64,000 bases of DNA from Acidimicrobiales bacterium (GCA_046594835.1 JBKJQZ010000069.1:1212-65211), one strand, 5' to 3'; positions 5,463 to 38,306 are shown, counted from the stretch's first letter. Translations and numbers: made by a program. The notes: generated by a model not told the origin, from the letters alone.

Positions 5463-5488
5463 ATCGCACTCCAGCTTGGAGGTTCCCT

Positions 5489-6013: not shown

Positions 6014-6024
6014 CCTGCGCATCC

Positions 6025-7518: not shown

Positions 7519-7531
7519 CTAACTTCGTCAC

Positions 7532-7882
7532 ATGACCTCGTCTCGACAGCTCACCGTGCGCTCGGTCAACGTGCGCAGCGTCGTGCGGGTGTCGGTCGTG
7601 CTTTATGGCTGCATGGTGCTCGTGTTCATCGTCGCATGGGCGATCTTGTGGGTAGTCGCCGGGGTGCTTGGGGTTAAGGCCAACGTCGAGGAATTTGTGT
7701 CGAAGCTTCTCGCGCTGGACTCGTTTCACGTCTCGGTCCTCGCCCAAGCGGCCGCGGCCATGGTCGGCGCGCCTGTCGTAATCGCGCTCGGCACGGGCGC
7801 GAACGTCCTCGCGGCAATCTTTTACAACCAGATTGTCGAGGTCGCCGGCGGCGTCCAGATCGACGTCGACGTCGAGGACTAG
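7532..7882 (+). CDS. DUF3566 domain transmembrane protein (Rv0007-like)
   Basis: LTVRSVNVRSVVRVSVVLYGCMVLVFIVAWAILWVV and the acidic tail are typical of the DUF3566 gene that follows gyrA and precedes tRNA-Ile in actinobacteria. Confidence 0.85.
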   Translation: MTSSRQLTVRSVNVRSVVRVSVVLYGCMVLVFIVAWAILWVVAGVLGVKANVEEFVSKLLALDSFHVSVLAQAAAAMVGAPVVIALGTGANVLAAIFYNQIVEVAGGVQIDVDVED

Positions 7883-7904
7883 CTACATTCGCCGTTCCCT
7901 TCAA

Positions 7905-7981
7905 GGGGCTATAGCTCAGCTGGTTAGAGCGCAGCACTGATAATGCTGAGGTCCCTGGTTCGATTCCAGGTAGCCCCACCA
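7905..7981 (+). tRNA. tRNA-Ile (anticodon GAT), CCA encoded
   Basis: I folded the cloverleaf by hand. Acceptor GGGGCTA/TAGCCCC, anticodon loop CTGATAA, T-arm CCTGG TTCGATT CCAGG; 77 nt including the 3' CCA. Confidence 0.95.
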
Positions 7982-8200
7982 ATTTTCCCGCACCGCGCCA
8001 GAATTCGTACCGACGGTATGTGTATTTGGTCGCCTAAACGGCGCATCTGGACCGGTATGGCCGATTCGGCTGTCGCAGCCGCACGTGGCTCACTCACGCG
8101 AGCGTTTAGCTAATTTTTGCAAGATTTTGTCGTGCGCGGCGTCAGACTTTGCCCTCTGAAGCGTTAACACTTGACCGCCAAACCAGGAGTACATCTACAC

Positions 8201-10186: not shown

Positions 10187-10203
10187 CCGAAGTTTCAGAT
10201 TGT

Positions 10204-10235
10204 GAAAGAGCCTCGGCTTCGGCCGGGGCTCTTTC
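10204..10235 (+). terminator. Strong GC-rich hairpin with UUCG tetraloop downstream of the surface-protein gene
   Basis: GAAAGAGCCTCGGC-TTCG-GCCGGGGCTCTTTC forms a 14-bp stem with one G-U pair. It starts 18 nt after the stop at 10186. It has no U-tract, like the tail-less hairpin terminators described as common in actinobacteria. Confidence 0.6.
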
Positions 10236-10263
10236 GCGTCTGGGGTTCGGTAGGGTGACGCGT

Positions 10264-10401
10264 GTGAAGGGCTTCCGCCGCGCGTTCGTCGCCTTGTTCA
10301 TCGCGGCGCTGGCCACCGCCCTCGTGCGCCTGCGCGGTAGCGGTGGCACCCCGCCGAGTGGCGGCGGCTGGCATGAAGTTCCCGCCGACGAACTGCGCTA
10401 A
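10264..10401 (+). CDS. Possible small membrane protein (45 aa), not in the ORF track
   Basis: GTG start. Product VKGFRRAFVALFIAALATALVRLRGSGGTPPSGGGWHEVPADELR has one TM helix and high GC3. No recognisable family and no clear RBS. Confidence 0.3.
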   Translation: MKGFRRAFVALFIAALATALVRLRGSGGTPPSGGGWHEVPADELR

Positions 10402-10409
10402 CTCGCTTC

Positions 10410-11417
10410 GTGGCTAAGTCAGCGGCGATCAACGTCGCCGTCATCGGGACGGGCGCGGTCGGGCTTCGGGCGGCGCGGCAGCTCCACGAAACCGATGGGG
10501 TGGCACGCGTGGTTGTCGTGGCGCGTAAAGCCGTGCGCGCTGCGTCGATCGCAGGCCAGCTCGGCGAAGGCGCGTCGGTGGGGGAGTGGCCTCAGGTCGT
10601 ACGCGATGTCGACGCCGTGGTGCTCGCCGTGCCCGACACGCTCCACGCCGACATGGCGCGGGTTTGTCTCGGTGACGGCGCCAGCGTGGTGTCCACTGCG
10701 GGTTCCATCGAAGCGGTCGACGGTGTGAGCGGGCTTGCGGCGCGCGCATCCGCGCTCGGCCTTTCTGCGGTGGCTGGCGTCGCGATGTCGCCGGGCTTGT
10801 CGTGCCTGCTGGCGTGGCGAGCCGCCCGCGATCTCGATGTTGTCGACGAAATCCACGTCGCGAAGTCCGGCACCGGCGGCCCTGCGTGCGCGCGGGCAAC
10901 GCACGCTGCGTTGCGCGGTCCGGCGGCGGTGTGGCGCGACGGACGCTGGCAGTCCGAGCCCGCAGGTTCGGGACGCGAGCTGTGCTGGTTCCCCGAACCC
11001 ATCGGTGGCCTCGACTGTTACGCGGCGAGTTCGGCCGAGGCGGCCCTCATGGTGGCCGCGTTCCCCACCGCTCGGCGCGTCACCGCTCGCGTCGCGGCAA
11101 CCCGTCGAGATAAGGCAACGACATGGCTTCCGATGCTGCGCCCGCCCCACCCCGAAGGCCTCCTCGGTGCGGTGCGCGTGGAAGTGCGGGGCTGGAAGCG
11201 CGGCGTTGCCACCACCAACGTGATGGGCGCAGTTGATCGTCCCGCGGTTGCCGCGGGAACGTTGGCCGCGCTGGCGGCGGTCGGCGCGGTGCGGGGTGAA
11301 CTCACGCCGGGTGCCGGCGGGATTGCGGCACTGGCCGCAGACCCGGGCCGGCTCCTTGCCGACCTAGCCGAACGCGGCGTAAAAGTGGCGTCGTACGCAA
11401 CCGTCGCTGACACCTGA
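10410..11417 (+). CDS. NAD(P)-binding Rossmann-fold oxidoreductase (saccharopine-dehydrogenase-like)
   Basis: The N-terminal dinucleotide fold is INVAVIGTGAVGLRAARQL. The specific function is not identifiable. Confidence 0.6.
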   Translation: MAKSAAINVAVIGTGAVGLRAARQLHETDGVARVVVVARKAVRAASIAGQLGEGASVGEWPQVVRDVDAVVLAVPDTLHADMARVCLGDGASVVSTAGSIEAVDGVSGLAARASALGLSAVAGVAMSPGLSCLLAWRAARDLDVVDEIHVAKSGTGGPACARATHAALRGPAAVWRDGRWQSEPAGSGRELCWFPEPIGGLDCYAASSAEAALMVAAFPTARRVTARVAATRRDKATTWLPMLRPPHPEGLLGAVRVEVRGWKRGVATTNVMGAVDRPAVAAGTLAALAAVGAVRGELTPGAGGIAALAADPGRLLADLAERGVKVASYATVADT

Positions 11418-11678
11418 GCTTTCTCACTACCTGGAAACAAGTACCGAGTACTTGGGGCCGCCTCGGAGCCTGTCCGTACGGTCCAAAGCGTGGAACTCGC
11501 CCAACTGCTGCGCCGCCCGTCGCCGCCGGACCGATCGCTGTTGCTGAGTACGACGAACTCCGCAGGCGTTGCCGGAACGCGTCGCGCGGATAGGCGTGCG
11601 CACCACGAACCAGCATCACGTCCGGGCGAGCGTGTGGCTCAGGAGTTCGAGAGCTTCGAGGGGTTCGATCGGCTTTCG

Positions 11679-13160
11679 ATGCGCATGCACGAACGCCTTG
11701 GCTCAAAAGCAATTCTTGTGTACGCGCTCCTGGCCGGCGTGGTCGCGGTGTTCGGCGCGGGCCTCGAGGTCGTGACTGCGTACCAATACGCCGGGCGACG
11801 CATCCAAGGCGTGGGCAGCGTGGCGATCGCCGGCCAGTTCATCAGTCTCGTCTGCGTGACTACCGCCGCGTTTCTGACGGCGCGCCTTCTCGGTCCCGCT
11901 TTCGGGTTCGTAGGCTCAGACGATCGCGAGCGGGACGCGCCGGCGGCGTGGCTGGCCGCGATCCGCGGACTCGACCGAGCCGTCTCGCTGGGCTTTGTGC
12001 TCTTTGGGCTTGCGAATGTTCCCCTCGCGTTCTACGCCCGTTCGGCCCTCGACCTCGGGCCGGCGGCGGTCCCCGTGGCGTTCAGTTTCATGGTGTTATT
12101 CACTGCGCTCGCCGCTTGCCTCGACTACGTCGCGTTCCGTCGCCTGTTGCGGCCTCTCATCCATACGATCGCGGCCCATCTTGCCGAAGACTTCGAACCG
12201 CAGTACCGGACACCGCCGCTACGACTCCGGTTGTTTTCGGTGATGCTCGTGTTGACCACAGTCGCGGGCACAACTGCCGCGTCGGTCGGCACCGGCGACA
12301 TCGTGTCGCGGCTCGCCCTCGGCTTGGGGGTGTCGGGCGGATTCGTATTGGTCTACGGCGTGCTGTTGGCTTTCTTGCTCACCGACAGCGTCTCCAATCC
12401 GATGGACGAACTCGTGCGCGCGACCCGGCGAGTCGCGATCGGCGACTTCTCGACGCGGGTTCCAGTGGTGGATGCCGACGACACTGGTTCTTTGGCGACC
12501 GCGTTCAACCACATGATGCGCGGGCTCACCGAACGCCAGACACTGCGAGAAGCAATGGGTAGCTACGTGGATCCGTACGTGGCCGAACGTGTCCTTGCGG
12601 AAGGCCAGATGCTCGGCGGCCACGCGGTTGACGCCACCGTGCTGTTTGTTGACATTCGAGGCTTCACCGCGTGGTGCGACGGGCGCACCGCAGAGGAGAC
12701 CGTTGCCCACCTCAACGACTTCTTTGGACTCGTCGTACCGATACTCGCCGAGCGGGGTGGCCACGCAAACAAATTCATGGGCGACGGGCTGCTTGCGGCG
12801 TTCGGTGTGCCCACCGCATGTGAGGACCACGCCGACCGCGCGTTGCAGGCTTCAATCCGGGTTATCGAGGCCATCCGCGCTCGGTACGGCGAGGAGCTAC
12901 GCGTTGGAATTGGAATCAATACGGGCCGGCTTGTCGTCGGCAGTATCGGCGGCGGCGGCCGACTTGAGTTCGGCTTGATTGGCGACGTGGTGAATGTGGC
13001 CTCGCGCGTTGAACAATGCACAAAGGACACCGGCGACGCGATCCTGTTTACCGACGCAACCCGCGCCGCACTCGCGCAGGAGTATGCACTTGTTGCCCGC
13101 GGCGCAACGGCGGTGCGCGGCAAAACTGCCCCGGTCGCTCTGTACGCGCTCGAAGTTTGA
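11679..13160 (+). CDS. Class III adenylate/guanylate cyclase with 6 TM helices and a HAMP domain
   Basis: Six hydrophobic segments are followed by HAMP (MDELVRATRRVAIGDFSTRV...LATAFNHMMRGL). The cyclase homology domain follows (VLFVDIRGFTAW, KFMGDGLLAAFG, GINTGRLVVGSIG, IGDVVNVASR). The start is uncertain: the GTG at 11490 is the longest option and I prefer the ATG at 11679. Confidence 0.85.
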   Translation: MRMHERLGSKAILVYALLAGVVAVFGAGLEVVTAYQYAGRRIQGVGSVAIAGQFISLVCVTTAAFLTARLLGPAFGFVGSDDRERDAPAAWLAAIRGLDRAVSLGFVLFGLANVPLAFYARSALDLGPAAVPVAFSFMVLFTALAACLDYVAFRRLLRPLIHTIAAHLAEDFEPQYRTPPLRLRLFSVMLVLTTVAGTTAASVGTGDIVSRLALGLGVSGGFVLVYGVLLAFLLTDSVSNPMDELVRATRRVAIGDFSTRVPVVDADDTGSLATAFNHMMRGLTERQTLREAMGSYVDPYVAERVLAEGQMLGGHAVDATVLFVDIRGFTAWCDGRTAEETVAHLNDFFGLVVPILAERGGHANKFMGDGLLAAFGVPTACEDHADRALQASIRVIEAIRARYGEELRVGIGINTGRLVVGSIGGGGRLEFGLIGDVVNVASRVEQCTKDTGDAILFTDATRAALAQEYALVARGATAVRGKTAPVALYALEV

Positions 13161-13277
13161 TATAGCCGTACGGTGAATGCGTCTCCAGGCCGGGTGCGAA
13201 AGACCGCAACGACCTCCGGAATGCGCTTCTTGCCGCAACTTGAGGCTCCGACGGAGCCACTTGGGTACTAGAGCGCC

Positions 13278-14153
13278 ATGGAATTCAACGACGATGCACG
13301 ACTGGACACGTCACAGGTAAGCGACGGGCGCGGCCGCGGCGGGATGATGGGCGCACTGCCCGGCGGTCGCCTCGCTGCAGGCGGTGGCGGACTCGGCCTC
13401 ATCGGCGTGGTGATTGCGATCGTCCTTAGTCTCACGAACGGTGGCGGATCGACCAATCTCGCGACGCCCACAACACCGGGTGAAGTTGCGACGCAGTGCC
13501 AGACCGGCGCCGACGCCAACCAACGCACCGATTGCCGCGTGGTCGGCATCGTCAACAGCGTCCAGGCGTTCTGGGCCGACGAAGCGCCCAACCAAGGGCT
13601 TGCGTACGTAGACGCCAAGACGCGGTTGTTCAGCCAGCAGATATCGACGGGTTGTGGCCCGGCGTCATCCTCGACCGGACCGTTCTATTGCCCGGCCGAC
13701 AAGTACGTGTATCTCGACCTCACCTTTTTCGATGAGCTGCGCAGTCAGTTCGGCGCCACTGGTGGGCCGTTCGCGCAGGCCTACGTGATCGCGCACGAAT
13801 ATGGCCACCACGTGCAGGACATCCTGGGCACCATGGACCGCATCGACCAGCGCGCCACCGGACCCCAGAGTGATTCGGTGCGGCTCGAACTCCAGGCCGA
13901 CTGTTACGCGGGCGTGTGGGCCGCGCACGCAGTGGAAACCGGGTTCATCTCCCAGCTCACCGACGCCGACATCGCCGACGGACTCGACGCCGCGGCTGCG
14001 GTGGGCGACGACCGCACCCAGGAAAAGTTTCAGGGCGAAGTAAACCCCGAAGCCTGGACCCACGGTTCGGCGGCGTCGCGGCAGAAGTGGTTCCGCGCCG
14101 GCTATACGACCGGCGATCCGACGAAGTGCGACACCTTCGTTGGCTCAGTGTGA
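13278..14153 (+). CDS. Neutral zinc metallopeptidase (YpfJ / PF04228-like), membrane anchored
   Basis: HExxH is present in [12 protein letters not shown]. An N-terminal TM follows a Gly-rich stretch. The [10 protein letters not shown] and GS...R motifs are typical of this family. Confidence 0.8.
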
Positions 14154-19041: not shown

Positions 19042-22000
19042 ATGCGAGGCGCACTTGAAACACGCGAGCGCGACGGCGCCGGTGCTCACACCGAGGCTCC
19101 CGATCCGTCTGCGAGGGAACACCCGCGGACGATTGGCTGGGTCGGCACAACGGCAATGGCGATGGGCGGAAGCAACCAGAGCCTGTTCCTGATCGGTGCG
19201 CTGATAGCGGCGCAAGGGAGCGCGGCGGTTCCCCTGCTGGTGCTCGGCCTGTTGATGAGCTGGGCTGCCATGCCGGGTTGGACCGAGTTGATCCTGCTTT
19301 ATCCGAACCGCGTCGGGGGCATCGCGGCTGCGTGCGCGGAAGCGTTCAAGCCCTACTCACCTGTTCTCGCGAATCTCACCGGCACCTGTTACTGGTGGGG
19401 GTGGGTACCGACCTGCGGCCTGACTGCGTTGCTGTCGGCGTCGGCGATCCATGACTGGTACCTACCAGGAGTGCCGATCACGCCCATGGCGATTGCGATC
19501 GTCGTCGGCTTCACGCTCGCCAACCTGGCCGGATTGCGCAAGGTGACCAACCTCGCGATCCTCATCGCCACCGGATCCGCCTTCCTCGCCTTCGTCTCGG
19601 CGGTAGCACCGGTGTTCGCAGGCAACGTCGACTGGCACCAGGCGATGTCGTTCCACCTTGCGACGCCGTTCGGCGGCGCGTTCGGCAAGTTCACGAGCGC
19701 AATGGCTGGGCTGTATCTCATCGGGTTCGCCGCTCCCGCGTTCGAGGCCGCGGCGTGCCATGTCGGCGAGACGATCGACCCGAACCGAAACGTTCCGCGT
19801 GCCATGTTCGCCAGCGCCTGGATTGCGACGTTGTACTTCCTTGTGTTGCCGGTCGTGTGGCTTGGCGTGTTCGGGCCCGCGCCAATCACCGCCAATCTCG
19901 CCACCACACTCGGCCCGACGTTCGCACCGTTGTTCGGGGGCGCGGCCAGGGCGGCCGCGGTGTGGTTCATGGTGCTCAACATGTTCCACGGCACGCTCAC
20001 TCCCGTCACGGGTGTCGCGCGCACATTGTCGCAACTCTCCGAGGACGGTCTCCTGCCGCGTGTCTTGGCGAAGCGGCTGCGCAACGACGTGCCCTGGGTC
20101 GCCTCGGCACTGACCGCAGCGTTCGCGATCGCCTTCCTCGTCGCGGGTGATCCGATCTGGATGATTGCGGCCGCAAACTTCACCTATCTGATCGGCATCT
20201 CGCTGCCGAGCGTTGCGGTCTGGCTGCTGCGCAAGAACCAGCCGCACCTGGTCCGTCCGTATCGCGCGCCGCGCTTCACGATCGGTCTCGGTCTGCTTGC
20301 CGCGCTGGGCTGGGGTATCAGCACGATCTTCGGCTTCGAGCAGTTCGGCTTGCCGACGGTGCTCTTCGGCCTCGGCCTCGCGTATTCGGGAGCGGGCGCT
20401 TACGTATTCCGTCAGTGGCGCGACCGCGACGGCCGCCCAAAGCTCGTCAAGCGTTCGTTGCACTTGAAGTTGACCGGCGCGATGTTGGCGGTGATGGCGC
20501 TCGACGGAGCGGGCTACCTCCTCGCGGTAAGCCACGTCACCGCCGCTGACCCTGCTCTGATTAGCGTGCTTCAAGACATTTTTGTCGCGGTCGCCGTGCT
20601 CACAATCACCGTCGGGCTCGTGTTGCCGGGCATGATCGCCCACGGTGCGAGCGAGGTGTCCAACGCTGCGGACCGCCTTGTTAGCGGCACGTTGGCAGAC
20701 CTGACCCGAGCGATGCGTGCGTTATCGGAAGGTGATCTCGAGGGAGCGAGCGCTCGGGTCGACAATCCGCACATCGCGATCCACTCGCGCGACGAGGTCG
20801 GTGCGATGGCGTCGAGCTTCAACGAGATCCTCGACGAGTCGGGCCGCGCCGCGGAGGCGCTCGATAGTGCTCGCTCCGGACTGCAAGCCGTGCTGGCCGA
20901 CCTCAAAGAGACGAAGGTGCAACTCGAGATCGCGCTGGCCGAAGCGACCGAAGCCTCGCGTTTGAAGTCGGCGTTTCTCGCCAACATGAGCCATGAGATC
21001 CGCACGCCGATGAACGGCGTGATGGGCATGATCGGGTTGTTGCTCGACAGCGAGCTCGCCCCGGAACAACGCGACTACGTCGAGACGATGGCCGGATCGG
21101 CCGAGGCGCTCGGCGGGATCGTCAACGACGTGCTCGATTTCTCCAAAATCGAAGCCGGCAAGCTGGACATTGAGCACCGGCAGTTCGCACTGCCCGCAGC
21201 GGTGGACGCCGCGCTCGACGCCCTGGCCACGAGCGCCGGCGACAAGGGCATCGAGCTGATCAGCGTGATTGCGCCGGGCGTACCCGAACTCGTCATCGGC
21301 GACCGTCTGCGGCTACGCCAGGTGGTGTCCAACCTGGTGTCAAACGCGATCAAGTTCACCGACGTCGGCCATGTGTTGGTGCGGGTGTCGCCGACTCCAA
21401 CCGGGGTGTGCTTCGAGGTGATTGACACCGGCATCGGCGTGCCCCGCGAAAATCGCAGCCGGCTGTTCGAGGCATTTGTGCAGGCCGACGACTCCGATTC
21501 ACGGCGCTACGGAGGCAGCGGCCTGGGTCTCGCCATCTGCCGCCAGCTCGTGGAACTGATGGGCGGGACCATTGGCGTTGCGAGCGAAGGCAACGGCGGC
21601 AGCAGGTTCTGGTTCACGCTTCCTTTCGAAGTCCTGGCCGGACCGTCGGTCCGACGTATCGAGCAGCCCGTCCGCGCGCTCGTTGTGACGCGGCAGCCCG
21701 CGTTGGCGGACGCGCTCATCGATCTCATGGGTCAATGGTCAATCAGTGCGAGCAGCGTCGAGGGTTACTTCGCCGAGCGTGAGGTGGCGGACGCTGCGTT
21801 GCGCGGCAAGCCATTCGATGTGGTGGTGATTGACGTTGATCCCGGCGGCGCGCACCAGAAGGCGCTTGCGCGCTCGATAGGCACCGACACCGATCGCGGA
21901 TCGCCGCGGGTCGTCGCGCTTACGCCACCGGGCCGGGGTGTGCGGGATCTGGACAAGGGCGTCGACGGGTGGGTGACAAAACCGGTGCACCAGGCTGCGC

Positions 22001-22485
22001 TGTTCGACTGTTTGACGAGCCTGCTCGGAGTGGCCGCGGACGGTCAGGACGAGGGTCCGCCGGCCCCGTCGCCGGCCCGGTCCGCGGCGCGCGGACGACT
22101 CCTGGTCGTGGAGGACAACCTGGTCAACCAGAAAGTTGCGTTGGCGATGCTCACAAGGCTCGGGTACACCTGCGACGTGGCCCTTGATGGCCGAGAGGCG
22201 TTGGTCGCGCTGGGCGCTGCGCACTACGACGCGGTTTTGATGGACTGTCAGATGCCGAACATGGACGGGTACGAAGCGACCGCCGCGATCAGGCTGGTGG
22301 AAAGCATGAGAGACGTGCCGATCGTCGCGATGACCGCGTCGGCGATGGCATCAGACCGCGAGCGCTGCCTCGCCGTCGGCATGGACGATTACGTGTCGAA
22401 GCCAGTCGACCCCGAGTTGCTTGCCTCCGTCGTGGAACGTTGGGTCGGGTCGCGCCACCCCGTTGGCGCTTCCGGTCTTTCTTGA
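19042..22485 (+). CDS. APC-superfamily permease domain fused to HAMP, HisKA, HATPase_c, a degenerate REC-like domain and a canonical REC domain (hybrid sensor kinase)
   Basis: One uninterrupted 1147-aa ORF. The N-terminal ~480 aa has about 12 TM helices and APC hallmarks ([13 protein letters not shown]..., [31 protein letters not shown]). Two more TM helices and HAMP follow. The H-box is [11 protein letters not shown]. The N/G boxes are [13 protein letters not shown] and GGSGLGLAI. The terminal REC has [20 protein letters not shown] and SKP. Confidence 0.85.
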
Positions 22486-30747: not shown

Positions 30748-31752
30748 GTGTCCGTCACGTTGATGGACGAGCCGCTGGCGGTCTTTCGAGACGCCAGTGG
30801 CTCGCCGCGTGCGGTGCTTGATCGCTGCCCGCACCGCAACGCCGCGTTATCCGATGGGCGCGTCGCGTCCGACGGCAACCTCGAGTGCCCGTACCACGGG
30901 TGGCGTTTTGACGGCACGGGCGAGTGCCGCGCCGTGCCCGGCTTGTTCGAAGGTGACGCAGCTCCAGCAACGGCGCGACGCGTGTCGTCGCACGCCGCGA
31001 CCGAACGCGACGGCTTCGTGTACGTGTGGGCCGCGCCGGGTGCTGAGCCGACGCGCGAAGCGTTCGCGATGCCGGACCTGCTCAAGGAAGGCCGAAAGCC
31101 CTGGCAGATCGGCCAGGTGGTGTTTCCGTGCGACCTCGACGCCACGCTGCACGCTGCGCTCGAGAACACGCTCGACGTGCCCCACACCGCGTTCTTGCAT
31201 AAGGGCATCTTTCGCGGCAAGCGACTGAAGGAACTCACGGCGGTGCGTCGCGACTTTGACGGCGGCGTGGAGGTGGAGTTCCTCGGTGAGCCGGTCGGCC
31301 TCGGCCCGATCCAGGGCGGCCCGTTCGCGAAGAAGACGTTCCAACACTGGGACCGCTTTCTCATGCCGCACGTCGCGCAGGTTGAGTACCGCGTTGAAGA
31401 CTGGCTCGAGATCTTCAACAACGTGATCCACGTGCCGCTCTCGCCGACGGTCACGCGCGCGTGGTTCGTGTTCCGGTGGTGGACGCCGCTGCCGGCCCGA
31501 TTGATCGCGCCGATCGTGAGCGCGCAGGGCCGTTTCGTATTGCGTCAGGACAAGCACGCGATGGCTGCACAGTCCAAGAACATCGACCGCTTCGGCGGCG
31601 AACGCTTCGCGTCGACGGACCTCGACTTGCTGGGCGCCGCAATCTGGCGGCTGCTGCGTCAGGCCGAGCGGGCCGAGGAAGCAGAGATGCGACCGTCGCA
31701 GCTTGACGAGTCGCTCGTCGAAGGCGCGACCCACCTCACCTTCGAGGCCTGA
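30748..31752 (+). CDS. Rieske [2Fe-2S] non-heme-iron oxygenase; coordinates given from the first canonical start
   Basis: The Rieske motif is CPHRNAALSDG...CPYHGWRF. The catalytic domain carries TLDVPHTAFLH. The conserved N-terminal segment FPKQYWYPVCQSKDLRRNKP is encoded upstream of the GTG at 30748, in the same frame, from a CTG at 30670 (see findings). Confidence 0.8.
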   Translation: MSVTLMDEPLAVFRDASGSPRAVLDRCPHRNAALSDGRVASDGNLECPYHGWRFDGTGECRAVPGLFEGDAAPATARRVSSHAATERDGFVYVWAAPGAEPTREAFAMPDLLKEGRKPWQIGQVVFPCDLDATLHAALENTLDVPHTAFLHKGIFRGKRLKELTAVRRDFDGGVEVEFLGEPVGLGPIQGGPFAKKTFQHWDRFLMPHVAQVEYRVEDWLEIFNNVIHVPLSPTVTRAWFVFRWWTPLPARLIAPIVSAQGRFVLRQDKHAMAAQSKNIDRFGGERFASTDLDLLGAAIWRLLRQAERAEEAEMRPSQLDESLVEGATHLTFEA

Positions 31753-31819
31753 CCGAGGCCAACTCGTCCCGCGAATCGACGCATAGGAGGTCGTTTCGCA
31801 GAACAGGTTCGGGGTTGGG

Positions 31820-32278
31820 TCAGCTGATGCGGCGCCACTTGGCGGTGGCGGAGGTAAGGACCTGCTCGTCGGCGTCGAGGATCTCGGCTGCGGCGAGGTA
31901 GTCGCGGCCCGTGACGCGCAAGACCTCAGCGCGGATCGTCAGAGGAGTCTCAGACGGCGCGGGCTTGCGATAGCGGAGATCGAACTCAACCGTTACGACG
32001 CGCTGCCACTCCGGGTCATCAGTCGAGGACACGTCGCCCTGCGATTCGTGGAACGCGTGCATCGCAAAGCCGATCGCTTCGTCGAGGATCGTGGCTTGCA
32101 CGCCGCCGTGGATCACGCCGGGTGAACCACACGTATGGCTTGGCGCGGCGTAGGTGGTTTCGACGCCGCCGGGCTTGGTGTGGGTGAAACTGAGTTGCAG
32201 CCCGCGATCGTTGTGCTGGCTGCAGCCGAAGCACATGTTGTTAGGGAAGTCGAAGCGCAGCTCTTGACCGATAGCCAT
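31820..32278 (-). CDS. PaaI/hotdog-fold thioesterase
   Basis: CFGCSQHNDRGLQL...GVIHGGVQATILDEAIGFA is the PaaI-type pattern. The ATG at 32278 lies just after the kdpE stop. Confidence 0.75.
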   Translation of the reverse strand: MAIGQELRFDFPNNMCFGCSQHNDRGLQLSFTHTKPGGVETTYAAPSHTCGSPGVIHGGVQATILDEAIGFAMHAFHESQGDVSSTDDPEWQRVVTVEFDLRYRKPAPSETPLTIRAEVLRVTGRDYLAAAEILDADEQVLTSATAKWRRIS

Positions 32279-32288
32279 GCGCGCGACG

Positions 32289-32999
32289 CTAACGGTCGTC
32301 GTCGGAGCGGTCGACGAGGCGGTACCCAACCCCCGGCTCGGTGATCAGACGAGGCCGCGTCGCGTCCTCATCAAATTTCTTTCGAAGCTGGCTGGCGTAG
32401 ACGCGTAAGTACTGGGTTTCGGTTCCGTATCCTTTGCCCCACACTTCCTCGAGGATCATGCGGTGCGTAATTACCCGGCCCGGGTGGCGGGCGAGCACGG
32501 CGATGAAGCCAAACTCCTTCGGCGTGAGGTCAACTTCGCCGCCCGACACGGTGACCACGCGTCGAGCGATGTCGATGTGCAGATCGCCTACGTCGTAGAC
32601 CGATTCGTCGATCGTTGCCGCGGAGCTGGTGCGGTGCCGCAGCGCGACGCGCACGCGCGCCAACAACTCCGGTACGGAGAACGGCTTCGTGACGTAATCA
32701 TCCGCTCCCTCATCTAGCGCTGCGACCTTGCGGTCGTCTGCGCCCTCCGCCGTCAACACAATTATCGGCACCTGCGACCACTGCCGGATGCGGCGGCATA
32801 CCTCGATGCCGTCGATGTCGGGGAGGCCGAGGTCGAGGATGACGAGGGCCGGCCCCTCGGCCGCCGCCCGATCGAGAGCTGCGAGCCCACTAGTGGCTTG
32901 CACGACCCGGTAGCTGCGAGCTTCGAGTGCCGCGGTGAGCGCACGCACGATTGCGGGCTCGTCGTCCACGACAAGGATGGTGGTCGACAGGTCAGTCAT
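32289..32999 (-). CDS. kdpE: OmpR-family response regulator, KdpE-like
   Basis: The REC domain has ILVVDDEP, LVILDLGLPDIDG and LTAEG. The wHTH tail TQYLRVYASQLRKKFDEDATRPRLITEPGVGYRL matches the KdpE signature. The ATG at 32999 overlaps the kinase stop by 8 nt. Confidence 0.85.
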   Translation of the reverse strand: MTDLSTTILVVDDEPAIVRALTAALEARSYRVVQATSGLAALDRAAAEGPALVILDLGLPDIDGIEVCRRIRQWSQVPIIVLTAEGADDRKVAALDEGADDYVTKPFSVPELLARVRVALRHRTSSAATIDESVYDVGDLHIDIARRVVTVSGGEVDLTPKEFGFIAVLARHPGRVITHRMILEEVWGKGYGTETQYLRVYASQLRKKFDEDATRPRLITEPGVGYRLVDRSDDDR

Positions 33000-34125
33000 G
33001 ACGCATCGGAAGGCTGAAACTGAATCGGGCTCCGCCGGTTGTAGCTGTCGACACGTCGATGAGGCCACCGTGGGCTTCGATGATCGCCCGACAGATTGCG
33101 AGGCCGACGCCGCTCGACGAACTGCCGTCCCCGCGCTGGAACGGCTCGAAAATCCGATCGGCTTGGTAGGTGGCCACGCCGCTGCCCTCGTCGCTTATGG
33201 ACGCGACCACAAGGTTTGCCTCTACACGCGCGGTTACGCGCACCGTGGTGCGGGGCGGGGAGTGACGCGCCGCGTTTTCGAGCAGATTGGTCACAACCTG
33301 ATCGACCAGGACGTAGTCGGCATCGACGAGGGGCAGATCAGACGGGATCTCCACCTGCACCCGTACCTGACGGAACAGCCGGTCGAGGCGCCGCACTCGC
33401 TCTCGCACGAGCTCCTCGAGGTCAACGGCCTGCGGCTCGGGCACGAGGGCTCCTGCTTCAATCCGGCTGAGACTAAGGAGGTTGGCGACGATTCGATCGA
33501 GGCGCTGTGCTTCGTCGCTCACGAGATCGAGCAGTTCGTCGCGGGTCTCGGCGTCATAGGCCGTCCCGCTGCGCAGATCGGAGGCGACGGCGCGAATCGT
33601 CGACAGAGGTGTGCGCAGGTCGTGTGAGACCGACCGAATCAGGGCGCGACGCTGCTCGTCGACTTGTTCGAACACTGCGAGTCGCGTGGTCTCCTCGACG
33701 CGCGCGTCGCGCTCGGCCACCGCCGCTTCGTAGCGGGTGTGCATCGTCTCCACTTCACGCGCTCGCTGCTCGGCGGAGTGGCGTCGTTCTGCTTCGAGGG
33801 CGACCACCGTGCCGAGCACGGCCCCAACCGCTAGTAGGACCACGAGCGCGACCGCGTCATCGAGCGCGTCCACTTTGAGTGTCCAGTAGGGCTCAATGAA
33901 GGCGAGATTGAACGCGAGCGCTGCGCCGACGGCCGTTACGAGCGCACCCACTCGACCACCGAGTACCCCGGCAACCAGAACAGGGACCACGAGCATGAGC
34001 GCAGGCGTAGCCCGACTCGACGAGTCGCGCAGGGGCACCAGGGACGCGCTCACGGCGATGGTCAGCGCCAGACCCATTGCCGCGCCAATCAACGGCGCCG
34101 GACGGCGACCCACAGCGAGTTCCAC
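32992..34125 (-). CDS. Sensor histidine kinase, KdpD C-terminal type (DUF4118 TM module, HisKA, HATPase_c) lacking the KdpD N-terminal and Usp domains
   Basis: Four TM helices with NLAFIEPYWTL (DUF4118-like). The H-box is SHDLRTPLSTI. The ATPase motifs are NLLENAARHS, DEGSGV and SSSGVGLAICR. At only 377 aa it is less than half, as I recall, the length of a full KdpD. Confidence 0.8.
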   Translation of the reverse strand: MELAVGRRPAPLIGAAMGLALTIAVSASLVPLRDSSSRATPALMLVVPVLVAGVLGGRVGALVTAVGAALAFNLAFIEPYWTLKVDALDDAVALVVLLAVGAVLGTVVALEAERRHSAEQRAREVETMHTRYEAAVAERDARVEETTRLAVFEQVDEQRRALIRSVSHDLRTPLSTIRAVASDLRSGTAYDAETRDELLDLVSDEAQRLDRIVANLLSLSRIEAGALVPEPQAVDLEELVRERVRRLDRLFRQVRVQVEIPSDLPLVDADYVLVDQVVTNLLENAARHSPPRTTVRVTARVEANLVVASISDEGSGVATYQADRIFEPFQRGDGSSSSGVGLAICRAIIEAHGGLIDVSTATTGGARFSFSLPMRHD

Positions 34126-34130
34126 GCAGC

Positions 34131-34151
34131 ATCTTTACGCGATCTTTGCGG
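34131..34151. promoter_or_regulatory. Direct repeats ATCTTTACGC / ATCTTTGCGG phased 11 bp apart (candidate KdpE-type box); third TCTTTACG copy at 34174..34181
   Basis: Read directly in the 79-bp divergent intergenic region between the kinase start (34125) and the permease start (34205). OmpR-family regulators, including KdpE, bind T-rich direct repeats with about 11-bp spacing. Confidence 0.4.
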
Positions 34152-34204
34152 CGACGGCGGTGTCCTTATGACTTCTTTACGAACCGGCGCGGTTCAATCA
34201 AGGA

Positions 34205-36187
34205 GTGAGCAATTTTGCGCCTCCGAAGCCGATCCCAGCGATGCCGGCGCTCGACCTCGCCGAGGACCGGCGCTACCGGATCAAACGACGTCTGCTCGGC
34301 GCGCCGTTGCACACCGAAGAACTCGCCCACGAGCGCCTTGGCAAGCCAACGGCGCTGGCCGTATTTGCGTCAGACAACCTGTCGTCCTCGGCGTACGCGA
34401 CCGAGGAGATCCTCCGGGTCCTCGTACCCGCGGTCGGCGTCGCCGCCTTCAGCCTTGTACTGCCGATCACGGTTGGTTTGCTCGTCGTCCTGGGCTTCCT
34501 GATCCTCTCGTACCGCCAAACCATCAAGGCCTACCCGACCGCGGGTGGCGCCTACATCGTCACGAAGGACAACTTCGGACTGCTGCCGGCGCAGGTTGCG
34601 GGCGTGTCGTTGCTTACCGACTACATCCTGACCGTGTCGGTGTCGGTCGCTGCGGGCACCGCAGCGCTTACTTCCGTTTTCGTGGGGGTGCGGCCCTATG
34701 CAGTGGAGGTGTCACTGCTGTTCATCGTCGTCATTGCGTACGGCAACCTGCGGGGCGTGAAGGAGTCAGGGAAGCTCTTCGCAGTCCCTACGTATTTCTT
34801 CATAGGCAACATGATCCTGCTGCTGGCCGTCGGGCTTTCAAAGCAGTTCTTCGGGCATCTTCCGGTCGAGTCGCTCAACCACCCGGGCCTCGTGCCGATC
34901 GGCCGCGGTGGCGCTGACGGCGCGATGTTCGCCGGCGCGAGTCTGTACATCGTGCTGCACGCGTTTGCCTCGGGGGGCGCCGCGGTGACTGGGGTAGAGG
35001 CAATCTCGAACGGCGTGCCTGCATTCAAGGTGCCCGAGTGGAAGAACGCCCGGGAGACCCTCGTGGTCATGGGTGGCCTGCTCGGCGTGATGTTCTTCGG
35101 CCTGTCGGTCCTCGCCGCGCACATGCACGTTGCCCCGTACGCCGAAGGTACCCCCACGGTGATCTCCCAGATCGGGAAGCTGGTCTACGGGCCGGGAACC
35201 CTCGGCACGATTCTTTACTTCGGGTTGCAAGCGGGAACCATGCTCATCCTCGTTCTCGCCGCCAACACGAGCTTCGCTGACTTTCCTCGCCTCGCCAGCT
35301 TCCACGCCGGTGACAACTTCATGCCGCGGCAGCTAACAAAACGCGGCCATCGACTCGTGTTCTCCAACGGCATCATCAGCCTCGCGGTTGCGTCCGCGTT
35401 GCTCGTTGTCCTCACCGAGGCGAAGGTCGATCGGCTCATCCCGCTCTACGCGATCGGCGTATTCACCAGCTTCACGCTGAGCCAGGCCGGCATGGCCAAA
35501 CACCACATCACGCACAAAGAGGATGGCTGGCGGACGGGCTTGTTTATCAACGGCACGGGCGCGTTTCTCTCGCTCCTCGTCGACGTCGTCGTCGCCGTCA
35601 CAAAGTTCACCCACGGGGCGTGGGTGATCCTCGTGATGGTCCCCGTGATGGTTGCGATGCTGATGCGTCTCAACAAGCAGTACGAGGCCGAGGCCGCCGA
35701 GCTCGCTGCCGATGCGAAAGCCGCCGCCGAGGCGCCGGTCCTTCGCCGCCACGTCGTGCTCGTGCTCGTCGATCGGCTCGATCGTGCCGCGGCTCGTGCG
35801 ATCCAGTACGCGCGGACGCTCCACCCTGACGAGTTGCGGGCGGTGCATATCGCGGTCGACCTGTATCGAGCGGACGTGCTCGCCGATGACTGGCGCCGTC
35901 TCGGGCTCACCCGACTGCCGTTGGAACTCGTCGACTGCCCAGATCGGCGCATCGATCATTCCGTGCTCGAGATTGTGGCCGAGTGCCTGGCCGGAGGCCA
36001 GACCGAAGTCAGCGTTCTGGTGCCTCGTCTTGCCCACCGACGCATGTGGCACCGGTTGCTTCATGACCGCACCGGGGACCAGATCGCCGATTCGGTCGGG
36101 CGTCTCGCGCACGCCAACGTGACGTTCGTGCCCTACCACCTCGGGTCCCGCATATTGAAGGAGAGCATTGATGCCGATTCCCATTAA
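34205..36187 (+). CDS. kimA: KimA (YdaO)-type K+/H+ symporter of the APC superfamily with a C-terminal cytoplasmic domain
   Basis: Blocks that I recall as conserved in B. subtilis KimA and mycobacterial Rv2690c: SDNLSSSAYATEEIL, SYRQTIKAYPTAGGAYIV, LLTDYILTVSVSVAAG, TGVEAISNGVPAFK, LVLAANTSFADFPRLAS and LIPLYAIGVFTSFTLSQAGM. The start is uncertain (GTG at 34205 or ATG at 34241). Confidence 0.8.
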   Translation: MSNFAPPKPIPAMPALDLAEDRRYRIKRRLLGAPLHTEELAHERLGKPTALAVFASDNLSSSAYATEEILRVLVPAVGVAAFSLVLPITVGLLVVLGFLILSYRQTIKAYPTAGGAYIVTKDNFGLLPAQVAGVSLLTDYILTVSVSVAAGTAALTSVFVGVRPYAVEVSLLFIVVIAYGNLRGVKESGKLFAVPTYFFIGNMILLLAVGLSKQFFGHLPVESLNHPGLVPIGRGGADGAMFAGASLYIVLHAFASGGAAVTGVEAISNGVPAFKVPEWKNARETLVVMGGLLGVMFFGLSVLAAHMHVAPYAEGTPTVISQIGKLVYGPGTLGTILYFGLQAGTMLILVLAANTSFADFPRLASFHAGDNFMPRQLTKRGHRLVFSNGIISLAVASALLVVLTEAKVDRLIPLYAIGVFTSFTLSQAGMAKHHITHKEDGWRTGLFINGTGAFLSLLVDVVVAVTKFTHGAWVILVMVPVMVAMLMRLNKQYEAEAAELAADAKAAAEAPVLRRHVVLVLVDRLDRAAARAIQYARTLHPDELRAVHIAVDLYRADVLADDWRRLGLTRLPLELVDCPDRRIDHSVLEIVAECLAGGQTEVSVLVPRLAHRRMWHRLLHDRTGDQIADSVGRLAHANVTFVPYHLGSRILKESIDADSH

Positions 36188-36464
36188 GGACGTTGAGTGG
36201 CGTGGCGAGGTCACGGTCGAGGGCCGCGTCCGCTCAATGCGCATCACGCCGTGGGCTGACGTGCCGAGCCTGGAATGCACGATCGTCGACGAGACAGGCG
36301 GGATGACGGTCGTGTTCCTTGGTCGGCGCAAGATCGCCGGGATACATCCGGGCACGATCATGCGAGCGGAGGGCACTGCCGGTGCACACCACGGCAAGCT
36401 CGCACTGATGAACCCGATCTACGAGCTGCTGCAGACACCCCACTTCGAGGCGCCGCACCACTGA
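36171..36464 (+). CDS. OB-fold domain protein (Rv2694c-like)
   Basis: EVTVEGRVRSMRITPWADVPSLECTIVDETGGMTVVFLGRRKIAGIHPGTIMRAEG...MNPIYELL resembles the actinobacterial OB-fold protein found in K+ transporter (trkA/Rv2690c) neighbourhoods. It overlaps the permease 3' end by 17 nt. Confidence 0.7.
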   Translation: MPIPIKDVEWRGEVTVEGRVRSMRITPWADVPSLECTIVDETGGMTVVFLGRRKIAGIHPGTIMRAEGTAGAHHGKLALMNPIYELLQTPHFEAPHH

Positions 36465-36517
36465 AAATAGAAACCCGCGCGCGGAGGTTTACCGCTCCCC
36501 GCTAGAGGCATAACTCT

Positions 36518-37384
36518 GTGGCCATGGCCGCTACCCGTCACACCAACCCGTGGGCGGACGAGGTGACCGACCTGGTGCGCGCCATTTCGGGTGGGCTGTT
36601 GTTTGGCATCCCCCTCCTCTACACAATGGAGGTGTGGTGGGTCGGCACCTCCACTGATCCCGATCGCGTGATCGGCGTGTTGCTCATCACGTTCCTGCCC
36701 GTGTGGTTTCTCAACCGCACCTCGGGCTTCCGGTCCGGCAAAGACGTGCGTTTGTCGGACTCGTTTATGGACTCCGTGGAAACCGTCGCCCTCGGCGTCG
36801 TCTCCGCGACCCTGTTCTTGTTGCTGCTCGAAGAGATCACACTCGCCACACCATTGAACGAAGCGCTCGGAAAGATCGCGTTCGAAGCGACGCCATTTGG
36901 CATCGGCATCGCCCTTGCGAGTCACTTCCTGCGTCAGGGCCGCACGCAGGGCGACGACGACGGCGGCGGCGAGGCCAAGACCCCGTTTCAAGCCACTATC
37001 GCCGACGTAGGTGCCACGACCATCGGCGCAATCTTCGTCGCCTTCAACATCGCACCCACCGACGAAGTGCCCCTCATCAGTAGCGCCCTCGGCCCGTATT
37101 CGCTGATCGCCGTCGTTCTTGTTTCGCTGCTGGTGTCGTTCTGCATCGTGTTCATCGCTGGCTTTTCCGACCAAGAGGGCCGCCGGGCCCAACAGGGGCT
37201 GTTGCAGCACCCGCTTACCGAGACCGTGGCGTGCTACCTCATCGCGTTCGGCGCCTCGGGTTTGATGTTGTGGCACTTTCAGCGGATCGACGCGTCCGCG
37301 CCGTGGCAAGAAATTCTTGGTTACATGATCGTGCTCGGACTCCCTGCGTCGGTTGGCGGCGCGGCAGGAAGGTTGGCTACGTGA
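36518..37384 (+). CDS. Integral membrane protein resembling the TIGR02587 family
   Basis: LVRAISGGLLFGIPLLYTMEVWWVG plus about 6 TM segments. It is followed by its usual small partner gene. Confidence 0.65.
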   Translation: MAMAATRHTNPWADEVTDLVRAISGGLLFGIPLLYTMEVWWVGTSTDPDRVIGVLLITFLPVWFLNRTSGFRSGKDVRLSDSFMDSVETVALGVVSATLFLLLLEEITLATPLNEALGKIAFEATPFGIGIALASHFLRQGRTQGDDDGGGEAKTPFQATIADVGATTIGAIFVAFNIAPTDEVPLISSALGPYSLIAVVLVSLLVSFCIVFIAGFSDQEGRRAQQGLLQHPLTETVACYLIAFGASGLMLWHFQRIDASAPWQEILGYMIVLGLPASVGGAAGRLAT

Positions 37385-37779
37385 GCGACAACGAAGCAGA
37401 CAACAAGCGCGCGCCGCGCACGGCTGCGGAATGGGTGACCTTCGCAGTGTCGCTCGTGGTGTTGTCGTTGCTCATCGGGGCAATGCTGGTGGAAGCCCAA
37501 CAAAGCGATGAGCCGCCGCGACCCGTCGCTCGAATCACGACGACCAAGCACATGGGCGATCAGTTCCAGGTGACGGTGAAAGTCGAGAACAAGGGCGACC
37601 TCGCCGCGGAAGCGGTGCAGGTCGTTGCCTCTCTCGAAATCGACGGCGAGACCACCGAAGGGGATCAGGTCGTGGACTTTCTCGCCGGCGATGACGAAGC
37701 CGAGCTTGTTTTCGTCTTCGGGGATGACCCCGACGACGGGAAGCTCACCGCTGAGGTGACCGGCTTTACCGTGCCCTAG
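37381..37779 (+). CDS. Single-TM protein resembling the TIGR02588 family (partner of TIGR02587)
   Basis: The GTG overlaps the upstream stop (GTGA). An N-terminal TM (WVTFAVSLVVLSLLIGAMLV) is followed by a beta-rich domain (FQVTVKVENKGDLAAEAVQVVASLEIDGE). Confidence 0.6.
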   Translation: MSDNEADNKRAPRTAAEWVTFAVSLVVLSLLIGAMLVEAQQSDEPPRPVARITTTKHMGDQFQVTVKVENKGDLAAEAVQVVASLEIDGETTEGDQVVDFLAGDDEAELVFVFGDDPDDGKLTAEVTGFTVP

Positions 37780-38306
37780 CTAAGGGGTCGGCGCATCGTT
37801 GCGTGATTCCGCGCGTTCTCGATGTAGTGGACGCTGCTCATCGCGAGGCCTGCCAACGCGTTCTCGTCGAGCTCGCGCACGACCTTCGCGGGCACGCCCG
37901 CTGCGAGTACACCCGGCGGAATCACTTGACCTTCCTTCACAAGCGCGCCTGCGGCGATCAGCGACTGCTCGCCGATCACGGCGCGATTGAGAACGGTCGC
38001 GTGGAGGCCGATGAGGCAGCCGTCGCCCAGGGTTGCGCCGTGGATCATCGCGGCGTGGCCGATGGTGACGCCTTTGCCGACCACGAGGGGGACGCCGGGG
38101 TCGGTGTGCATCACGGTGTTGTCCTGCACGTTGGAGCCTTCGCCGATGGTGATGGCCTCGAACTCGGAGCGGAGCACGCAGCCGTACCAAACGCTGGCGT
38201 TGGCCTTGAGCACGATGTTGCCGACGAGAGTTGCGTTCTCGGCGACCCACGCGGTCGGGTCGATCTGCGGGCTCAGATCGCCAAAGGTGTAGATGTGCGC
38301 GGCCAT
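37776..38306 (-). CDS. Gamma-carbonic-anhydrase-like hexapeptide-repeat protein (YrdA/PaaY type)
   Basis: IDPTAWVAENATLVGNIVLKANASVWYGCVLR...IGEGSNVQDNTVMHTD is the left-handed beta-helix pattern with the His ligand context. Confidence 0.85.
   Translation of the reverse strand: MAAHIYTFGDLSPQIDPTAWVAENATLVGNIVLKANASVWYGCVLRSEFEAITIGEGSNVQDNTVMHTDPGVPLVVGKGVTIGHAAMIHGATLGDGCLIGLHATVLNRAVIGEQSLIAAGALVKEGQVIPPGVLAAGVPAKVVRELDENALAGLAMSSVHYIENARNHATMRRPLS

Follow-up and report, generated by a model that had tools for sequence, protein, structure and literature searches.

We report on a locus (positions 32,289 to 36,464) within a 64,000-nucleotide stretch of DNA from an Acidimicrobiales bacterium, the whole stretch being called the window below. 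In this locus, the genes of a histidine kinase (HK) and of a response regulator (RR), related to KdpD and KdpE, are divergent from the gene of a KimA-type transporter, itself followed by a gene for an OB-fold protein. Judging from the sequence and its relatives, the locus is most likely a self-contained potassium-uptake module, in which hk-rr is divergent from a two-gene kimA-OB operon. The overall explanation that we regard as likely is a Kdp-type switch dedicated to kimA-OB, which would act through four direct repeats, R1 to R4, placed between the two gene pairs. A sequence-only reading of this DNA, made earlier by a model, had proposed a KdpE and a short KdpD divergent from a KimA-type transporter and an OB-fold gene, and each of these elements was recovered at or near the place where it had been put. 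The elements are listed here, with protein lengths in amino acids (aa):

32289 to 32999, minus strand: KdpE-like response regulator of the OmpR family, 236 aa, from ATG 32999, with Response_reg and Trans_reg_C domains
32992 to 34125, minus strand: minimal KdpD-like sensor kinase, 377 aa, with a DUF4118 four-helix membrane module, a coiled coil, HisKA and HATPase_c
34126 to 34204, no strand: divergent control region, 79 bp, whose whole length is occupied by conserved elements
34131 to 34150, plus strand: candidate distal KdpE-type dimer site R1-R2, ATCTTTACG cg ATCTTTGCG, -74 to -55 from the kimA start
34162 to 34181, plus strand: candidate proximal KdpE-type dimer site R3-R4, GTCCTTATG ac TTCTTTACG, -43 to -24, spanning the -35 region
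34193 to 34198, plus strand: -10-like hexamer TTCAAT, -12 to -7 from the kimA GTG, family consensus T[TG][CG]A[CA]T
34205 to 36187, plus strand: KimA-type (KUP family) K+/H+ symporter homologue, 660 aa, including a C-terminal cytosolic domain
36171 to 36464, plus strand: OB-fold protein, 97 aa, probable ATG 36171, translationally coupled to kimA

Searches by tblastn with KdpA, KdpB, KdpC and the KdpD N-terminus (two KdpD N-termini were used) gave zero matches across the 64-kb window, and none of the 10 open reading frames (ORFs) of at least 500 aa scanned in it was a P-type ATPase. The absence of kdpFABC nearby, noticed in the sequence-only reading, thus extends over 64 kb as far as KdpA, KdpB and KdpC are concerned.

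Four phased repeats in the divergent control region

Positions relative to kimA are counted from its GTG, with 34205 as +1. The four repeats, of consensus wTCTTTRCG, are the following:

R1, 34131 to 34139, plus strand: ATCTTTACG, -74 to -66
R2, 34142 to 34150, plus strand: ATCTTTGCG, -63 to -55
R3, 34162 to 34170, plus strand: GTCCTTATG, -43 to -35
R4, 34173 to 34181, plus strand: TTCTTTACG, -32 to -24

Their offsets are 0, 11, 31 and 42, so that R1-R2 and R3-R4 form two dimer-type sites separated by three helical turns. From the kinase side to kimA, the 79 bp read as 5 nt, R1-R2, 11 nt, R3-R4, 11 nt, the hexamer, and 6 nt. When the tandem repeat pattern was searched on both strands of the 64 kb with up to 3 mismatches, two matches were obtained, both within the 79-bp region, R1-R2 being exact. 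A position matrix was then used, built from the repeats of seven relatives, two further relatives (L116 and L120) being held out. It scored R1-R2 at 31.8 bits and R3-R4 at 27.4 bits, the next best score in the window being 13.0. The sequence-only reading had three of the repeats in their right places and missed the fourth, which turns the array into two dimer sites. Its comparison with OmpR/KdpE half-sites was apt: the phasing is of 11 bp, it is conserved, and the matrix also detects kdp promoters (see below). The position of R1-R2, -74 to -55, matches that of the E. coli KdpE site, -72 to -50.

Conservation of linkage and geometry

Family loci were defined as those with a kinase 56-85% identical to that of the window and with usable flanks, which left 13 informative loci. 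In 12 of the 13 (the window, L001, L002/L003, L004, L086, L087, L089, L115, L116, L117, L119 and L120), kimA, with or without OB, adjoins the HK-RR genes, the adjoining KimA homologues being 44-86% identical; L087 counts as partial, a fragment of OB being found immediately upstream of its kinase. The arrangement is divergent in most loci and co-directional, as kimA-(OB)-HK-RR, in L089 and L120.

Ten related loci (HK 58-85% identical) still have the region upstream of kimA, and the layout of the control region was kept in all of them, among which is one with kimA upstream of the kinase in the same direction. It recurs as in the window in L001, L002, L004, L086, L115, L116, L117 and L119. In every family locus, R3-R4 stands at offset 31-32 from R1; this holds for L116 and L120 too, where both sites were present although these loci had been held out of the matrix. 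In the divergent relatives, of 13-17 kb each and with L086 excepted, these two were the only strong matrix sites. The repeats of L086 have diverged to a TTGAC type, which the matrix does not score, and occupy the same offsets; the recognition helix of the regulator is nevertheless invariant there, so that a search for covariation between helix and half-site gave nothing. Two loci are telling as to which gene the sites accompany. In L120, where the kinase is downstream of kimA, the sites are upstream of kimA and not beside the kinase; in L001, which has three KimA-like genes within 8 kb, they are found only at the one facing the kinase. In each family locus where it was read, R4 is followed, 11 nt on, by the hexamer T[TG][CG]A[CA]T, and in 8 of 10 loci a distance of 5-8 nt separates this hexamer from the first usable in-frame start codon. 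Aligning the intergenic region in relatives, a check suggested along with the sequence-only reading, hence showed conserved repeats in a fixed geometry to the kimA start.

L001 also shows how crowded such a neighbourhood can be, with three KimA-like genes, two OB-fold genes and two TrkA genes around the short HK-RR pair (~4000-13400). Its kimA facing the kinase has an apparent frameshift near the 5′ end, which is probably a long-read indel.

The same motif at genuine kdp promoters

The matrix, trained only on kimA promoters, was used to scan ~1.3 Mb of unrelated loci, where it singled out the DNA upstream of kdpF and kdpA in genuine kdp operons. Coding-strand sites of at least 16 bits were found in 12 of 36 kdpA-upstream regions (29.7 kb in total), when the background rate would give ~0.2. 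In Pseudomonas, each of the 7 kdp loci had a site at about -210; other matches came from kdp promoters of Planctomycetota, Alphaproteobacteria, Victivallales and Solirubrobacterales. Several kdp upstream regions with lower scores also contained 11-bp-phased CTT(T/G)AY half-sites. In E. coli, the KdpE half-sites are TTTATA-N5-TTTACA, with an 11-bp period, at -72 to -50. R1 to R4 are thus predicted to be KdpE boxes, and this shared motif is the strongest independent support for the wiring that we propose. A KdpE-box matrix that works across phyla is also a usable tool.

The KdpE footprint at the M. smegmatis kdpF promoter, AAGAAACCATCAAGGCCG, was described as 'A-rich' and reported to be unlike other KdpE sites (PMC5401905). 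Read on the opposite strand, it is CGGCCTTGATGGTTTCTT, which contains CTTGATG, that is, a CTTGAYG half-site as at kimA.

A KdpE-like regulator

The regulator ORF spans 32289-33068, with the actual start at ATG 32999, which gives 236 aa; between this ATG and the stop codon of the kinase there is an overlap of 8 nt, found in relatives too. Among NCBIfam models, KdpE (NF007820) came first at 227 bits, followed by MtrA at 199, the KdpE cut-off being 325. Among structures, the top match was E. coli KdpE (4kny, 205 bits, E=1e-59) versus 160 bits and 4e-46 for RegX3. The segment YLRVYASQLRKKF...LITEPG of the regulator aligns with YLRIYMGHLRQKL...FITETG of E. coli KdpE. Residues R193 and R200 of the recognition helix and T215 of the wing have been shown to be necessary for DNA binding by KdpE, and their equivalents are all kept here; R193 is conserved among KdpEs, whereas PhoB and OmpR have an acidic residue in its place. 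The KdpE-type DNA-binding tail recognised in the sequence-only reading is therefore borne out, both by the family ranking and by these contact residues. The recognition helix is invariant throughout the family.

Identity to true KdpEs of several phyla is ~47-55%. It is ~50% to the KdpEs of Acidimicrobiia, and equally so to those of Pseudomonas or Streptomyces; being equidistant from local and distant KdpEs, the regulatory branch would be old. To judge from these comparisons and those of the kinase, the two-component system is Kdp-like, not KdpDE proper.

A kinase reduced to membrane module and catalytic core

Pfam domains of the kinase are DUF4118 (residues 17-121, E=3.5e-18), HisKA (158-225) and HATPase_c (270-375); neither the KdpD N-terminal domain (PF02702) nor Usp was found in it by Pfam. 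The NCBIfam model for KdpD (NF007793) ranked first, with 173 bits for an equivalog cut-off of 1123, and the top kinase match in the PDB was KdpD (6lgq_C). Residues 120-374 align with residues 614-873 of P. putida KdpD at 39% identity, and the GAF segment of the latter (~125 aa, residues ~490-614) has no counterpart in the alignment, the gap between DUF4118 and HisKA being of ~35 residues. The description given in the sequence-only reading, a 377-aa kinase made of DUF4118 and the catalytic core without the KdpD N-terminal and Usp domains, agrees with both Pfam and tblastn; its list of lost domains was right for these two and incomplete, as the GAF segment is missing too.

The short kinase is, on comparative grounds, a genuine form and not a truncation artefact, since its family comprises thousands of proteins, since the close relatives among those listed are 308-460 aa long, many of them ~377 aa, and since the N-terminus is conserved. 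These closest relatives are annotated as metagenome-assembled genomes (MAGs) of Acidimicrobiales or Actinomycetota, which places the source of the window among uncultured Acidimicrobiia. An R-x-P-x-P motif at the N-terminus, kept among homologues, supports the long GTG start; the shorter NCBI-style start (M17, 361 aa) is disfavoured on account of this conservation.

KdpD's N-terminal domain is a serine kinase that phosphorylates S162 of KdpB, which switches the pump off, and the proposed K+-sensing sites of KdpD are in its transmembrane (TM) and GAF part (PMC11018627). A kinase serving KimA has no KdpB substrate for such a module, and the module is absent, as our model predicts. Truncated E. 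coli KdpD variants still answer K+ limitation, which makes the TM-DHp-CA core a plausible but unproven K+ sensor. The survey of KdpD architectures by Silberberg et al. (2024, PMC11018627) was limited to species annotated with a Kdp pump, so that a class of short kinases associated with kimA would have escaped it.

A KimA-type transporter with a probable OB-fold partner

The permease matches B. subtilis KimA (6s3k) over its full length, residues 24-645 versus 3-604 (E=6e-122), the homology covering the 12-TM APC fold and the cytosolic C-terminal domain. In this alignment, the residues of K+ coordination and gating (D36, Y43, D117, T121, S125, T230, E233 and Y377) are identical at 8 of 8 positions. 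In the pocket for cyclic di-AMP (c-di-AMP), R337, Y118, N237 and H579 are kept, and four positions are changed (P479L, N580D, Q581R and S582T). The only Pfam match is the generic AA_permease_2, and no NCBIfam model was matched. From its homology, the permease is a predicted KimA-type K+ importer, in keeping with the sequence-only reading, which had likened this 660-aa APC protein to KimA. An Rfam scan detected neither a ydaO riboswitch nor any other Rfam element upstream of kimA, where the 79-bp gap leaves no room for ydaO.

Because of an in-frame stop at 34169-34171, kimA cannot start before GTG 34205. We set the start there because the codons of the N-terminal stretch APPKPIP that follows vary chiefly at third positions among relatives, that is, they evolve like coding sequence. 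The alternative start at M13 (ATG 34241) was rejected: the stretch ahead of it evolves as coding sequence, and M13 itself is not conserved.

The OB gene overlaps the 3′ end of kimA by 17 nt, and has a ribosome-binding site of its own, GAAGGAG, 7 nt upstream of ATG 36171. The AlphaFold model of its product has a pLDDT of 93 and shows a five-stranded OB barrel, so that the overlapping OB-fold gene seen in the sequence-only reading is confirmed on both counts. Foldseek returned only generic OB-fold matches for this model, to OB domains of RPA, SSB and the anticodon-binding part of aminoacyl-tRNA synthetases (TM-score ~0.6-0.75). Against the Pfam family tRNA_anti-codon (PF01336), the protein scored 20.4 bits, under the cut-off of 27; the names that sources give it are 'OB-fold nucleic acid binding domain-containing protein' and 'RecG-like helicase'. 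In L004 and L119, KimA and OB form single, stop-free polypeptides of 777 and 787 aa, with OB at the C-terminus of KimA, and such fusions count as Rosetta-stone evidence for a shared function of the OB protein and the transporter. Together, the coupling, the fusions and the recurrence of OB genes beside KimA and TrkA genes argue for a protein that acts jointly with the transporter.

We considered whether kinase and transporter could be neighbours by chance, with repeats that only autoregulate a generic DUF4118 kinase sensing a signal other than K+, and a permease carrying another substrate. DUF4118 is indeed found in kinases other than KdpD, the permease is matched only by AA_permease_2 and by no NCBIfam model, and in one family locus (L118) the two-component system and a degenerate R1-R2-like site persist without kimA. 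A fortuitous association is nevertheless very improbable in our opinion: the linkage is seen in 12 of 13 loci despite rearrangements, the sites of L120 are at kimA and not at the kinase, the spacing from site to kimA start is fixed, the K+-site residues of KimA are conserved at 8 of 8 positions with E=6e-122, and the motif is that of the Kdp promoter box.

A probable paralogue dedicated to kimA

In a profile scan with the kinase alignment and generic H-box patterns, the matches listed were mostly distant full-length KdpDs instead of close relatives, and they served for comparison; a metagenome scan with the single kinase yielded only five close loci. In the comparison loci, full-length KdpD (~830-940 aa) follows kdpABC. 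Split systems, with a TM(-GAF)-DHpCA kinase and a regulator beside kdpABC, were present in Chloroflexia, Sericytochromatia, Solirubrobacterales and some Acidimicrobiales, usually accompanied by a separate KdpD_N gene. Split KdpD, with a KdpD/Usp protein and a separate TM/GAF/DHpCA kinase, is a known class (Silberberg et al. 2024, PMC11018627).

In Acidimicrobiia, the kdp operons L121, L122 and L123 carry their own full-length kdpDE, and in L123 a kimA-OB fusion is directly upstream of kdpFABC-kdpDE. By analogy with L123, the genome of L086 probably also carries a full-length kdpDE further on. Taken with the kdpFABC genes found beside kimA-OB in L086 and with the ~50% identity of the regulator to all true KdpEs, these operons with kdpDE of their own lead us to prefer a paralogue: the system is probably a KdpDE-like paralogue dedicated to kimA-OB. 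The sequence-only reading had spoken of a Kdp system rewired to a KimA transporter. The wiring part of this view is supported by the linkage, the repeats, the regulator and the motif; 'rewired' is better replaced by a kimA-dedicated paralogue.

A possible, though rather unlikely, explanation is that of a wider regulon, in which the system would control both kimA-OB and a kdpFABC operon outside the window, kimA being an extra member of the Kdp regulon; the genome would then have either two KdpDE-type pairs, this system among them, or this one alone. Such an arrangement has precedents. The operon facing the short HK-RR of L086 runs kimA-OB-DUF4118-kdpA-kdpB, the kimA-OB fusion of L123 adjoins kdpFABC-kdpDE, and KdpA is common in Acidimicrobiales (the best 120 KdpA matches were all at least 76% identical). 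The box motif being common to real kdp promoters, cross-recognition is plausible. However, there is no kdp gene within the 64-kb window, nor within 6-8 kb in L001, L002, L004, L115, L116, L117 and L119; full-length kdpDE genes of their own accompany the kdp operons seen in Acidimicrobiia, whose promoters have a somewhat different half-site, of GCTAAG type when read on the other strand.

Repeats of the type GCTAAG-N5-GCTAAG were observed on the coding strand at the kdp promoters of L121, L122 and L086. Before the kimA-OB fusion of L123 (~960-1020), a locus in which the only kdpDE nearby is full-length, 11-bp-phased GTCGTTAGCGC repeats have a layout like that of the window with a different half-site. 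Acidimicrobiia kdp operons also begin with stand-alone DUF4118-only membrane proteins of 248-265 aa, which resemble a kinase-less KdpD membrane module; in L121 and L123 an ORF of 41 aa lies between this gene and kdpF. The DUF4118-only proteins are encoded at:

L086, 2638 to 3435, minus strand
L121, 9049 to 9795
L122, 9012 to 9791
L123, 3901 to 4674

Further from the family, KdpDE-type pairs with medium-length kinases were found beside KimA-like genes in L017, L053, L057, L076 and L081, from MAGs of other Actinomycetota and of Chloroflexota, with box-like sites seen in L057 and L017. In six Streptomyces loci (L055, L060, L065, L070, L080 and L082), full-length kdpD-kdpE is followed by an OB homologue, 41-44% identical. 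A KimA homologue (38-40%) comes a few kb further on in 4 of the 6, with a TrkA-like ORF in between in L055; no kdpABC was found within 7 kb in any of the six. In three other Streptomyces loci (L038, L059 and L075), kdpABC adjoins a second KdpD.

Proposed mechanism and its direction

In the mechanism that we propose, the phosphorylated regulator would bind the four 11-bp-phased direct repeats as two tandem dimers. The proximal pair would stand in for the -35 element in pho-box fashion, 11 nt before the weak -10-like hexamer, yielding a leaderless, activator-dependent kimA-OB mRNA, and the distal pair, 5 nt from the kinase start codon, would also autoregulate hk-rr. By analogy with KdpDE, the signal would be K+ limitation and the output an induction of K+ uptake. 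In the classic PhoB-type layout for activation, direct repeats end ~10 bp before a weak -10 and a -35 element is missing. As the kimA start codon stands only 6 nt past the hexamer in the window, we infer that the kimA mRNA is probably leaderless, the assignment of the -10 being likewise inferred. The hexamer was also considered as a -35 element, and rejected, there being no -10 beyond it and only 5-8 nt before the conserved start codon.

Towards hk-rr, the distance from R1 to the start codon of the kinase is 5 nt in the window and 6-7 nt in L002, L004 and L115, and the reverse complement of R1, (T)AAAGAT, is located where the -10 of a leaderless hk-rr mRNA would be. These two features make autoregulation of hk-rr through the distal pair likely, if speculative. 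In L118, a degenerate R1-R2-like site (5994-6013, 10.2 bits) lies at the kinase start, beside a 456-bp gap and an acyltransferase gene, which would fit an autoregulatory role of the distal site.

The regulator could instead be a repressor, occluding the kimA core promoter with R3-R4 and the hk-rr promoter with R1-R2, in which case kimA would be on when the regulator is unphosphorylated. The sites themselves would allow it, as R3-R4 cover -43 to -24, R1 is 5 nt from the kinase start codon, and the (T)AAAGAT of its reverse complement falls at the would-be -10 of a leaderless hk mRNA. We find this improbable, because KdpE and the nearest characterised relatives are activators, because the layout of the repeats is that of classic PhoB-type activation, and because a poor -10 together with the failure to detect a sigma-70 promoter fits dependence on an activator.

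Several observations do weigh against a kimA-dedicated, Kdp-type activator. L118 has the two-component system without kimA, the sole exception in the family. Position 2 of the hexamer is not the A that is canonical in a -10, and a scan of 31700-38000 with the sigma-70 consensus found no promoter. Sites over the -35 region and over the kinase 5′ end would suit a repressor equally well. The short HK-RR of L086 faces kimA-OB-DUF4118-kdpA-kdpB, so that the regulon may include Kdp in some genomes. Finally, both proteins score under their NCBIfam cut-offs, the kinase far under that of KdpD (173 for 1123) and the regulator under that of KdpE (227 for 325). All in all, we think it quite likely that the regulator acts on kimA-OB at the 79-bp promoter, and reasonably probable that it does so as an activator; for K+ limitation as the signal, which is argued from KdpDE, our leaning is slight.

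Comparison with known systems

With KdpD/KdpE of E. coli and M. smegmatis, the system shares the DUF4118 module and DHp/CA core, the equivalents of R193, R200 and T215, and direct half-sites of TTTAC type with an 11-bp period, the distal site being at the E. coli distance from the start; as in mycobacterial kdp, regulator and target are divergent. It differs by its target, a KimA-type secondary transporter rather than the Kdp P-type ATPase, by a kinase without KdpD_N serine kinase, Usp and GAF, by protein scores under the NCBIfam KdpD/KdpE cut-offs, and by two dimer sites instead of one, the proximal one over the -35 region, with an mRNA that is probably leaderless. Split KdpD systems also pair a stand-alone membrane histidine-kinase half with a KdpE-type regulator, but they keep the N-terminal half nearby and target kdpFABC, whereas here there is no KdpD_N in 64 kb, no GAF segment, and the neighbour is kimA.

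The transporter shares with B. subtilis KimA (YdaO) full-length homology, the 8 K+-site and gating residues, and the c-di-AMP residues R337, Y118, N237 and H579, while half of the residues of the c-di-AMP pocket are changed. Bacillus uses the ydaO c-di-AMP riboswitch; here, a two-component system takes the place of a riboswitch, and an OB-fold partner is present when none is known for Bacillus KimA. As for the promoter, tandem 11-bp-phased repeats that end ~10 bp before a weak -10 and replace the -35 are common to it and to class II pho-box promoters of PhoB, from which it departs by the regulator subfamily, the half-site and the extra upstream dimer site.

KdpDE is regarded as regulating almost nothing but the Kdp pump, and for kimA the known control is by a c-di-AMP riboswitch. 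Our results suggest that a large uncultured actinobacterial lineage would use a KdpDE-type switch for a KimA-type symporter instead. No description of KdpDE-type control of a KimA-type transporter, or of the OB partner, was found in the full-text literature searched (subscription journals were outside its scope); one review lists KimA-like genes of Streptomyces, naming no regulator. The minimal kinase makes it testable where KdpD-type kinases sense K+, and also whether the N-terminal module exists solely for KdpB, given that it is lacking in just the case where the Kdp pump is not the neighbouring target. In addition, a conserved OB-fold partner of KimA-type transporters is flagged.

Three linked proposals go further, and we put them forward tentatively, as a set that we doubt would hold in full. 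First, the bare DUF4118-DHp-CA core would be a sufficient K+ sensor, and the kinase and regulator would make up a distinct and widespread branch, 'KimS/KimR', within the Kdp regulatory family, governing KUP-type secondary transporters in Actinomycetota and Chloroflexota. Second, the OB protein would be an unrecognised regulatory subunit of KimA-type transporters, which might dock on the cytosolic domain as a receptor for a ligand or nucleotide. Third, from the KdpDE-KimA-OB-TrkA neighbourhoods of Streptomyces, the 'KdpDE' found there would also govern secondary K+ transporters.

Other features of the window

The window has a G+C content of ~65% and begins with gyrB and gyrA. Downstream of the module, starting 53 nt past the OB gene, are genes for a DUF2391/TIGR02587 membrane protein (36518-37384, plus strand) and a TIGR02588 protein (~37390-37779, plus strand). 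A terminator scan detected no intrinsic terminator 3′ of the OB gene, including before the DUF2391/TIGR02587 gene. These two genes were considered as members of the module and rejected, since they accompany it, a few genes downstream, only in the closest relatives L115 and L116. Elsewhere in the window (19042-22485, plus strand), an ORF of 1147 aa has an AA_permease_2 domain (residues 31-423) fused to HAMP, HisKA, HATPase_c and receiver domains, which is the architecture of a transporter-like hybrid sensor kinase ('transceptor').

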